Assembly (NCBI GenBank): GCA_048393175.1
Contig: DBFJJM010000006.1
Location: 1 to 51,158 of the forward strand
Source of the DNA: Candidatus Merdicola sp.
GTDB taxonomy: Bacteria; Bacillota; Clostridia; TANB77; CAG-508
Direction of reading: 5' to 3'
Length of the DNA: 51,158 nucleotides
The stretch's first letter is position 1, and every line of letters starts with the position of its first letter. A program made the position numbers and the translations under genes. Positions 49,626-50,956 of this stretch are shown here, in pieces. Under the pieces are notes generated by a model, which ran no database searches, was not told the DNA's origin, and was given only the letters and a program-made list of their open reading frames with translations.

Positions 49626-49654
49626 TTGACAAAAAACGAATGAATAGATAAAAT
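49626..49654 (+). promoter_or_regulatory. Sigma-A promoter for the DUF45-toxN unit
   Basis: TTGACA, a 17-nt spacer, then TAAAAT. Confidence 0.6.
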
Positions 49655-49699
49655 AATACAAACAAGAGTTCGAAGAACAAAAATTTGTAATAGGGTGGG

Positions 49700-50389
49700 A
49701 TGACGATGAAAATGAAAAATGATGTAATTGCTTATACTGTAAATAAAGTGATGAACCGAGAATGTTATATTTGTATACAAAACGGAGAAGTTTTAGTACA
49801 AGCCCCATGGTATTTATCCCAAAATCAAATTCAGGCTATGGTAGAACAAAAGAAAAAATGGATTCTTCAAAAAAGGAAAGAATATTTACAGAAAAAAGAA
49901 AAAGTGACATTTGATACGTTTAAAATTTTAGGAGAAAAATATGCTTTAAAAATTAGTTATAAAAATGTTAAATCTCCTAGCTTAACAGTAGACAGTACAA
50001 GAGTGATTGAAGTAATTCTTCCTAAAAAGTATCGAAAAGCAGAAAAAGAGGAGATTTTACAAGTCTTACTAGAAAAAATGTATAAAGTAATAGCGGAAAA
50101 AGAATTAGAAGCCATGATGGAAAAAACACGTCTTATTTTAGGAATCGCACCAGAAGACTATGAGATTAGACAAATGGAAAATACACTTGCAAAATGCTTA
50201 CCAAATGGTAAAATTCTACTTCATCCAAATCTAATCAAATATTCTAGAAAATGTATTGAATATGTACTGTTACATGAATTTTGTCATTTAAAATATAAAA
50301 AGCATTGTAAAGGGTTTTATCAAATGATAGAAAGGTATATTCCAGATTATAAAAAATATGCAAATGAAGTAAGTAATTTACAATATTAA
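49700..50389 (+). CDS. DUF45 / YgjP-like (M48-related) zinc metallopeptidase
   Basis: It has the C-terminal HExxH motif LLHEFCHLKYKKH and the typical size of about 230 aa. The start is probably ATG 49706 or 49712. Confidence 0.8.
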   Translation: MTMKMKNDVIAYTVNKVMNRECYICIQNGEVLVQAPWYLSQNQIQAMVEQKKKWILQKRKEYLQKKEKVTFDTFKILGEKYALKISYKNVKSPSLTVDSTRVIEVILPKKYRKAEKEEILQVLLEKMYKVIAEKELEAMMEKTRLILGIAPEDYEIRQMENTLAKCLPNGKILLHPNLIKYSRKCIEYVLLHEFCHLKYKKHCKGFYQMIERYIPDYKKYANEVSNLQY

Positions 50390-50396
50390 CAAGGGG

Positions 50397-50426
50397 GGAG
50401 GAATTTTTAATTCTTCCTTTCTTTTT
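50397..50426 (+). terminator. Hairpin plus T-run between DUF45 and toxN (attenuator-like)
   Basis: GGAGGAATT-ttt-AATTCTTCC is followed by TTTCTTTTT, and then an AGGAGG RBS. Confidence 0.6.
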
Positions 50427-50437
50427 AGGAGGTAACA

Positions 50438-50956
50438 ATGGAGTTTTATTGGTTAAATACGAATTATTATCACTATCTTAAGCAATGGGATAAAAGAGTT
50501 CCTATTGCGAATAAAGAAAAGCATTTCAGGCCATTTTTAGGACCCTTTTTCCTATCTGATATGTTTCCTTATTATCTTCCTCTTACTTCTCCTAAGAAAA
50601 AACACCAATTTATTTATCAAAGAGGAGATATTATTTTAATTGAAGAGGGAAGACTTGGTGCTATTAATGTAAATAATATGCTTCCTCTACCACAACAGGA
50701 AGTATGTCAAATACAGATAGAACAGATGGAAGATAATAAATATAAAAAGTTATTGCAAAAACAATTGTTATGGTGTATACAAAATAAAGAAATGATTCAA
50801 AGAAAAGTAAATAATATTTATCTACTTTATCATAAAATAAAAAAGGAGCAGTTATGCAAAAGGTGTTGTGATTTTCCTTTATTAGAGTTAAACTATTACT
50901 TATATATAGGGAAAGATAAATTACAAGAAGAAGAGCAAACTTATCAGTATGCTTAA
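50438..50956 (+). CDS. toxN: ToxN/AbiQ-family type III toxin endoribonuclease
   Basis: MEFYWLNTNYYHYLKQWDKRVP ... YYLPLTSPKKKH ... LGAINVNNMLP ... YKKLLQKQLLW ... CCDFPLLE aligns motif-for-motif with my recollection of Pectobacterium ToxN (MKFY..YL..D.KVP, APLTSPKK.H, LG.IN, YK..L.KQL). Confidence 0.85.
   Translation: MEFYWLNTNYYHYLKQWDKRVPIANKEKHFRPFLGPFFLSDMFPYYLPLTSPKKKHQFIYQRGDIILIEEGRLGAINVNNMLPLPQQEVCQIQIEQMEDNKYKKLLQKQLLWCIQNKEMIQRKVNNIYLLYHKIKKEQLCKRCCDFPLLELNYYLYIGKDKLQEEEQTYQYA

Follow-up and report, generated by a model that had tools for sequence, protein, structure and literature searches.

How a MazF-like, sequence-specific RNase stays harmless without its antitoxin is a testable question, and it is posed by a locus of Candidatus Merdicola sp. 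(GenBank assembly GCA_048393175.1), and by the branch of related proteins to which it belongs, in which a gene for a toxin of the ToxN/AbiQ family lacks the RNA repeats that should precede it. The locus lies on the 51,158-nt stretch of contig DBFJJM010000006.1 that was analysed here (the window), where a YgjP-like/DUF45 zinc metallopeptidase gene (49700–50389, + strand; ATG at 49706 according to gene callers) is followed by toxN (50438–50956, +), which encodes a 172-aa endoribonuclease. Type III ToxIN systems are recognised by a ToxN-family toxin, at least about two upstream direct repeats of 31–46 nt, and a short palindromic terminator between the two, and by neutralisation of the toxin through a directly bound, processed cognate RNA (PMC3401426); ToxN homologues without repeats were dropped from the founding survey (PMC3401426). 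The answer that we favour, with a probability of about 0.5, is that the window encodes a functional solo ToxN that has lost its ToxI array and would be restrained by read-through-limited expression together with a C-terminal tail, with DUF45 as the resident source of promoter and attenuator.

The protein matches Pfam ToxN_toxin (PF13958, E 1e-40) and the PADLOC AbiQ model (PDLC02352, 110 bits, E 3e-32), and its nearest solved relative is ToxN of Bacillus thuringiensis (4ATO, E 1e-21). Its AlphaFold2 (AF2) model, with a predicted local distance difference test (pLDDT) score of 85, superposes on 4ATO, 7D8O, 2XD0, and 4GLK with template modelling (TM) scores of 0.75–0.81 in Foldseek, which also returned weak matches to MazF; the ToxN core is MazF/Kid-like (PMC3401426). 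In Escherichia coli ToxN, the active site consists of K33, T52, S53, and K55, and toxicity is lost on mutating K33, T52, K55, N79, or Q117, with Y110 helping to hold the RNA (PMC8860590). The window ToxN has the catalytic R31, T50, S51, and K53 as well as N77, Y102, and Q109, which hold the RNA, and all seven are invariant across the ToxI-less branch; W57 (E. coli ToxN numbering) is replaced by K55 in the window ToxN, likewise in many ToxI-bearing relatives. Relatives in the branch have ratios of nonsynonymous to synonymous substitution (dN/dS) of 0.03–0.2 in pairs with unsaturated dS (0.18–0.6), which, together with the retention of the catalytic residues, argues for working rather than decaying genes. 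The window toxN gene is thus intact, and the inactive toxin that a preliminary description of this DNA had entertained is not supported, given these seven residues and the low dN/dS of the relatives. Loss of RNA binding through a lower positive charge of the core was considered and rejected, the median core charge being +10 in ToxI-less vs. +8 in ToxI-bearing proteins.

Hairpins, promoters, and repeats were sought over 48800–51158 (2.36 kb). In this region, neither Tandem Repeats Finder (TRF; minimum score 30) nor a seed-7 repeat search found a ToxI-like array, their yield being two trivial matches of 9–11 nt and two-copy families at chance level. As a comparison set, we took 80 ToxN relatives (35–42% identity) from species-representative genomes; about 60 of the 80 have textbook ToxI arrays, with units of 33–40 nt in about 3.2 copies (2.2–4.4), which end about 40–170 nt, mostly 45–85 nt, before toxN. 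The units have the consensus AAAAAAGCGGUG..CC.ACC....GGGA and form a two-stem pseudoknot, for which covariation (28 double-sided changes vs. 10 in shuffles) clearly beats slid registers. R1, a covariance model trained on 44 ToxI units from related loci, scores real units at 15–39 bits, also in loci outside model building; units of L171 reach 21–24 bits and the unit of L107 38.6 bits. Locus L107 (300–460) has the canonical order promoter–ToxI–terminator–toxN with one ToxI unit, flanked by AAAAAG on either side, and is thus a natural single-repeat type III locus.

With filters off, R1 gave a best score of 13.4 bits over the whole 51-kb window, below the range of real units, and no score above 11 bits on same-species contigs or on the sister lineage L176; in other ToxI-less loci its maxima are 14.8–15.1 bits and are located away from the toxN start. 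Because nothing in the real-unit range was obtained in the window, the same-species contigs, or L176, this model excludes a hidden ToxI of the type known from the family at the locus. The weak window matches at 36435–36471 (13.4 bits) and 36579–36620 (10.2 bits) were set aside as chance hits in A-rich coding sequence 14 kb from the locus. A known RNA family as antitoxin was also rejected: the sole Rfam match in 46–51.2 kb is RT-14, which is part of a remnant of a diversity-generating retroelement (DGR) and not of toxN. The low-threshold TRF, repeat, and covariance-model searches bear out the preliminary description in its central claim, a ToxN without a tandem-repeat antitoxin behind DUF45; of the unrecognised antitoxin that it put forward, these searches remove the version with a ToxI-type RNA at the locus, and a different or trans-encoded RNA would be compatible with them.

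Such an RNA could be a non-repeated transcript from the 3′ end of DUF45 and the intergenic hairpin, or a ToxI-type array located elsewhere and acting in trans. We regard this reading as unlikely, although we place it first in credence among the rivals, followed by a domesticated RNase of low toxicity and then by DUF45 as a protein antitoxin. It gains from the result, cited in a passage on ToxIN in a study of another system (10.1101/2025.04.15.648962), that one ToxI repeat suffices for antitoxin activity, for which L107 provides a natural single-unit counterpart, from the retention of the hairpin between DUF45 and toxN in two species, and from one metagenome-assembled genome (MAG) that combines ToxI-less paralogues with a canonical ToxI-bearing locus. 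However, R1 is negative in all three places named above, and the 48-nt spacer between DUF45 and toxN is taken up by a plain hairpin and the ribosome-binding site (RBS). An all-against-all blastn-short comparison of the flanks of the ToxI-less branch, the window included, found no non-coding element common to the window and other members, returning only elements tied to a downstream ligA-type gene, none of them in the window. Known ToxI–ToxN pairs are, moreover, highly specific, without cross-talk (PMC5086642).

The missing array is a property of a whole branch of ToxN proteins. In a neighbour-joining tree built from one alignment, all 19 repeat-less proteins, including that of the window, form one group, and all other proteins with sufficient upstream sequence have an array, L088 excepted. 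Another 15 repeat-less loci came from a second scan; in total, the branch was represented by 37 distinct ToxI-less proteins, the window's included, from uncultured, AT-rich gut Clostridia, and its profile matches over 100 clusters formed at 90% identity in public data. The window ToxN is divergent within the branch, its relatives reaching about 43% identity at most; the ToxI-bearing L171, which is tailed, groups with the branch at 43% identity to it. Viral contigs yielded only canonical ToxI-bearing toxN loci, all of them without the tail. These data point to a sizeable, vertically persistent, and apparently undescribed group of solo ToxN genes; in the literature, we found no description of ToxI-less ToxN or of a link between DUF45 and ToxN.

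A distinctive feature of the branch is an acidic-aromatic C-terminal tail (IGKDKLQEEEQTYQYA), encoded in the window at 50906–50953 (+). Nearly all ToxI-less members have the tail motif [M/I]x(4-5)-E-E-E-h-h-Y-x(1-5), including 14 of the 15 loci added by the second scan. Across the 37 ToxI-less proteins, conservation is 97% for E164, 81% for E165, 89% for E166, and 95% for Y169, with E164 and Y169 invariant in the set A3; most of 75 ToxI-bearing proteins have gaps at these positions. The tail codons vary synonymously (GAA/GAG, TAT/TAC) and glutamate swaps with aspartate, which shows selection at the level of the peptide.

Members of the branch are found most commonly in the co-oriented order mutS–toxN–ligA (many loci), and also as yebC–toxN–spoIIIAA (L172, L173), as toxN–spoIVA (L012), and, in a prophage-like element, 20 nt past a tyrosine integrase (L199, protein P0236). 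A hairpin with a U-run stands shortly before the toxN RBS in the window and in L011, L009, L020, and L171–L173. No partner gene or flanking non-coding element common to the whole ToxI-less branch was found in the contexts compared. Where MutS and LigA, encoded by neighbouring genes, are 80–85% identical, ToxN is 47–79% identical, i.e., it evolves two to three times faster, as is typical of defence genes.

These contexts bear on whether the ToxN fold has been domesticated, with narrow or no RNase activity and a role in processing or binding housekeeping RNA that makes an antitoxin needless. The co-oriented placement among housekeeping genes (mutS–toxN–ligA, yebC–toxN–spoIIIAA, rplS–toxN), the purifying selection on the branch, and the lack of a conserved partner would all suit this explanation. 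The proteins nevertheless retain every residue that is needed for the toxicity of E. coli ToxN and conserved in the subfamily, and their rate of evolution relative to MutS and LigA, the occurrence of several paralogues in one MAG, and the integrase and ParE neighbours fit defence or toxin–antitoxin (TA) genes and not core genes; the grouping of the ToxI-bearing, tailed L171 with the branch is also at odds with it. Domestication is therefore, in our estimate, improbable, and second in credence among the rivals.

Three observations on the neighbourhoods of branch members stand on their own. ParE genes or remnants lie directly 5′ of toxN in L039 (3629–3901) and L019 (3672–3953), so that the mutS–ligA gap acts as a small TA islet. 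In one sub-lineage, a 152-aa open reading frame (ORF) precedes toxN by 13–28 nt (L014, 3515–3973; L015; L018, 1792–2250); in L014 and L018 it belongs to no Pfam, NCBIfam, or PADLOC family, and could be a lineage-specific partner. MAG CANPTO01 carries four ToxI-less toxN paralogues (L014, L018, L115, L118) together with the canonical ToxI-bearing L050; ToxI-less copies can therefore multiply, and neutralisation in trans comes into question.

In the window, the arrangement of signals around toxN would allow its expression to be held low. A search for RNA-seq data matching the locus gave only wastewater runs, which contained no more than 13% of the sampled words. A sigma-70-type promoter (TTGACA-17-TAAAAT, 49626–49654, +) agrees with the consensus at 11 of 12 positions, although this AT-rich DNA shows no excess of promoter-like matches overall (14 vs. 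15 expected). Its −35 element lies inside a 20-nt block, AAAAAAAGTATTGACAAAA, which is identical in the second species represented by L176, and this lends support to the preliminary assignment of the promoter to the unit. A further block, ACAAGAGTTYGAARAACAA, occupies the 5′ untranslated region at 49663–49683 of the window and about 2008–2028 of L176, where the DUF45 proteins are merely 61% identical, and may be a regulatory element. DUF45 is followed by a terminator-like hairpin with a U-run (50393–50426, +; hairpin 50393–50420), the sole terminator-like site in the region scanned vs. 0.4 expected, with a folding energy of −17.1 kcal/mol (z −3.1); the hairpin that the preliminary description had placed before toxN is thereby confirmed. 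The 48-nt spacer between DUF45 and toxN consists of this hairpin and U-run and then the RBS (AGGAGG, 50427–50432, +), 5 nt ahead of the ATG as read from the sequence.

Downstream, the scan to 51158 found no terminator after toxN, as had been described, and the third gene of the unit starts 15 nt past the toxN stop codon. It is a PlsC-like acyltransferase gene (PF01553, E 4e-17; a TIGR00530 match falls under its cut-off) whose 5′ part (50972–51158, +) runs off the window; on same-species contigs (L001–L008), the complete gene was called, encoding 197 aa. At the other end, an A/U-flanked hairpin (49560–49592, +) ends the preceding DGR/RT-14 region and would insulate the unit upstream. This hairpin is stable for its composition (−12.9 kcal/mol, z −3.5; 0 of 200 shuffles as stable) but is below the criterion of at least three G-C pairs used in the terminator scan.

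The region beyond this hairpin is of interest in its own right. RT-14 RNA (Rfam RF02921) occupies 49408–49560 (+) with 77.5 bits vs. a gathering score of 48.1, and directly follows a stretch resembling the template and variable repeats of a DGR (TR/VR, about 49200–49412) and an ORF for a C-terminal fragment of reverse transcriptase (RT, 48921–49130). On L002, a contig of the same species, the corresponding place is occupied by an intact DGR, with bAvd and RT. The GGGtGRT ORF of the window (47713–48804, +) encodes 363 aa vs. 333 aa in L002 and relatives; its Pfam match stops at residue 314 and the final approximately 50 residues diverge, which may be a scar left when most of the DGR was deleted.

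The DUF45 protein is a full-length member of its family (PF01863, E 2e-40, profile positions 2–203 of 207) with the HEFCH zinc motif. Its closest orthologue, P0271 (61% identity, HEFCH invariant between the two), comes from the second species (L176/L177), in the order tyrS–DUF45–toxN–acyltransferase. In that trio, ToxN is 39% identical to the window protein and tailed, the acyltransferase is 62% identical, and the spacer between DUF45 and toxN again contains a hairpin with a U-run, matching that of the window in position and structure but not in its stem letters. DUF45–ToxN co-occurrence is confined to these two lineages, and toxN would have joined DUF45 in their common ancestor. Elsewhere, no DUF45 gene was found within 3–4 kb of any of about 110 distinct relative ToxN loci, and about 35 ToxI-less ToxN loci are without one. 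Conversely, toxN is missing from about 30 loci that carry a DUF45 orthologue or a shorter DUF45-like gene (34–55% identity); among them, orthologues at 47–55% identity in about 15 lineages stand solo among housekeeping genes (truB/ispG, ABC/enolase, hsp20/glyoxalase, rplS/lysS). The nearest representative genomes of GTDB, in which GGGtGRT is 86–91% identical (e.g., Clostridium sp. CAG:245 and CAG:793), share with the window the order GGGtGRT–DUF45, with DUF45 in its full-length or shorter DUF45-like form, and have no toxN or acyltransferase within 6 kb of this pair. A scan of Joint Genome Institute (JGI) metagenomes with both trio ToxNs gave no match, and a scan with DUF45 gave 12 loci, with toxN in 0 of 12.

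Since ToxN loci occur without DUF45, DUF45 loci without ToxN, and the GGGtGRT–DUF45 pair without toxN, DUF45 is taken to be a resident gene and not a dedicated partner; on this gene-neighbourhood evidence, it would be mostly a bystander, not a general antitoxin. The retained trio, with promoter and attenuator, argues for co-transcription, and would not in itself argue that DUF45 neutralises ToxN. The functional pairing floated in the preliminary description, and the survey of adjacency that it called for, thus come out divided: one sister lineage (L176/L177) keeps the trio, and over 100 ToxN loci have no DUF45 and about 30 DUF45 loci no ToxN. As a separate observation, one genome (L171, 3287–3500) has a tailed, ToxI-bearing toxN in the gap that follows rplS, and another (L089, 3591–3929) has a solo DUF45 there, so that the same intergenic site has been used by both families.

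DUF45 could still act, in this lineage, as a protein antitoxin or regulator of a type II-like or type VII-like kind that binds or cleaves ToxN, with the terminator keeping DUF45 in excess as it does ToxI in canonical loci. In the unit, DUF45 lies where ToxI would be expected, behind the promoter and ahead of the terminator, and the trio, the promoter block, and the hairpin are kept in L176/L177 despite a different upstream gene (tyrS). Set against this are the DUF45 loci without ToxN, the ToxI-less ToxN loci without DUF45, and the relatives with DUF45 downstream of GGGtGRT and no toxN, all counted above; DUF45 also has no extra domain, equals its solo orthologues in length, has no PADLOC match, and has no link to ToxN that we could find in the literature. 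We hold this for the least credible of the three rivals, and quite improbable.

We therefore return to a solo ToxN under expression control and a tail, for which the following course of events is proposed. The ToxI array would have been lost in the lineage, with retention of the enzyme, the hairpin ahead of toxN, and the acidic-aromatic tail, and toxN would have landed or stayed downstream of a resident housekeeping DUF45 gene. Transcription of toxN and the acyltransferase gene would then start at the DUF45 promoter and reach them solely by read-through of the DUF45 terminator, DUF45 acting as the source of promoter and attenuator and not as a dedicated antitoxin. The low expression that results from read-through may restrain ToxN, which would be an active RNase serving as a defence or stress effector. 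The tail (EEE-h-h-Y) may be a built-in inhibitory or regulatory peptide that fills the RNA groove, in the manner of the acidic C-terminus of MazE on MazF. We infer that control has moved from the RNA antitoxin to features intrinsic to the protein, of which the conserved tail is the best candidate.

Several points weigh against this explanation. The toxicity and RNase activity of the window ToxN are predictions from its residues. AF2 does not dock the tail, and models it as a low-confidence helix (pLDDT about 50). The tail stands beside intact ToxI arrays in L029, L040, and L171, and L118, as well as P0236 with its integrase neighbour, has neither ToxI nor the tail; the tail is therefore neither a sufficient sign of ToxI independence nor strictly needed for it, and would not be a simple replacement for ToxI. 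The search for ToxI in this species' own genome covered about 60 kb, on which its absence there rests, so that an array elsewhere in the genome would be compatible with the data. Finally, the retention of trio, promoter, and hairpin in a second species with a different upstream context exceeds what would be expected of a random bystander.

A stronger version of the role of the tail, in which it mimics RNA within the groove of either its own protomer or an adjacent one and replaces the antitoxin outright, would make ToxN a self-inhibited single-gene defence RNase, triggered by removal or displacement of the tail, with DUF45 possibly clipping the tail in the window species. The tailed ToxI-bearing loci and the tail-less ToxI-less variants tell against it, and we consider it improbable.

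The locus matters beyond this species in that a repeated RNA antitoxin is what defines type III TA systems, and protein-only detectors call a ToxI-less toxN AbiQ. An answer that invoked a cis-acting tail, expression control, or a novel partner would widen the known modes of toxin control, and would alter the reading of AbiQ/ToxN matches in gut metagenomes. The DUF45 case further illustrates that a single adjacency is a poor basis for inferring a functional pair.

Among known systems, the YgjP-like/DUF45 (COG1451) metallopeptidases claim the window gene as a full-length HExxH member. This family is often found beside type I restriction genes; none are present at the window locus. The criterion of type II TA systems, conserved co-occurrence of a toxin with an upstream antitoxin, contrasts with the two lineages in which DUF45 accompanies ToxN. 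AbiF/RCd22 of Clostridioides difficile is a type III-like system with an unprocessed RNA antitoxin (10.1101/2025.04.15.648962), and shows that an Abi RNase can have an antitoxin RNA other than a processed tandem array; its toxin has an Abi_2/HEPN-like fold and is preceded by a two-motif RNA, whereas the window ToxN differs in fold and no such RNA was found at its locus. AbiQ/antiQ of Lactococcus (4GLK) shares with the window protein the AbiQ model (110 bits), the fold (TM 0.78), and membership of the same anti-phage endoribonuclease family, but AbiQ depends on antiQ repeats, which are absent from the window, and is plasmid-borne, whereas the window gene is chromosomal.

The closest comparison is with ToxIN itself, which the window locus resembles in protein family and fold (E 1e-21, TM 0.80), in the catalytic constellation (R/K33, T52, S53, K55 in E. 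coli numbering), and in the terminator hairpin directly before toxN, with pseudoknotted ToxI repeats carried by close relatives of the window ToxN. It differs in having no ToxI array or single unit, a DUF45 gene between promoter and terminator, an additional acidic-aromatic tail on ToxN, and an acyltransferase gene downstream without an intervening terminator. The locus thus has the protein, the catalytic residues, and the terminator of the ToxIN family and fails on the defining repeat array, and should therefore not be classed among type III TA systems. For the tail, the model is provided by the type II system MazEF, in which an acidic C-terminal segment of MazE blocks MazF, itself structurally related to ToxN. 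The likeness consists of the MazF/Kid-like core of ToxN and of an acidic, aromatic-containing blocker peptide; docking is hypothetical for the tail (pLDDT about 50), and the acidic peptide, which MazEF places on a separate antitoxin, belongs in the window to the toxin chain itself.

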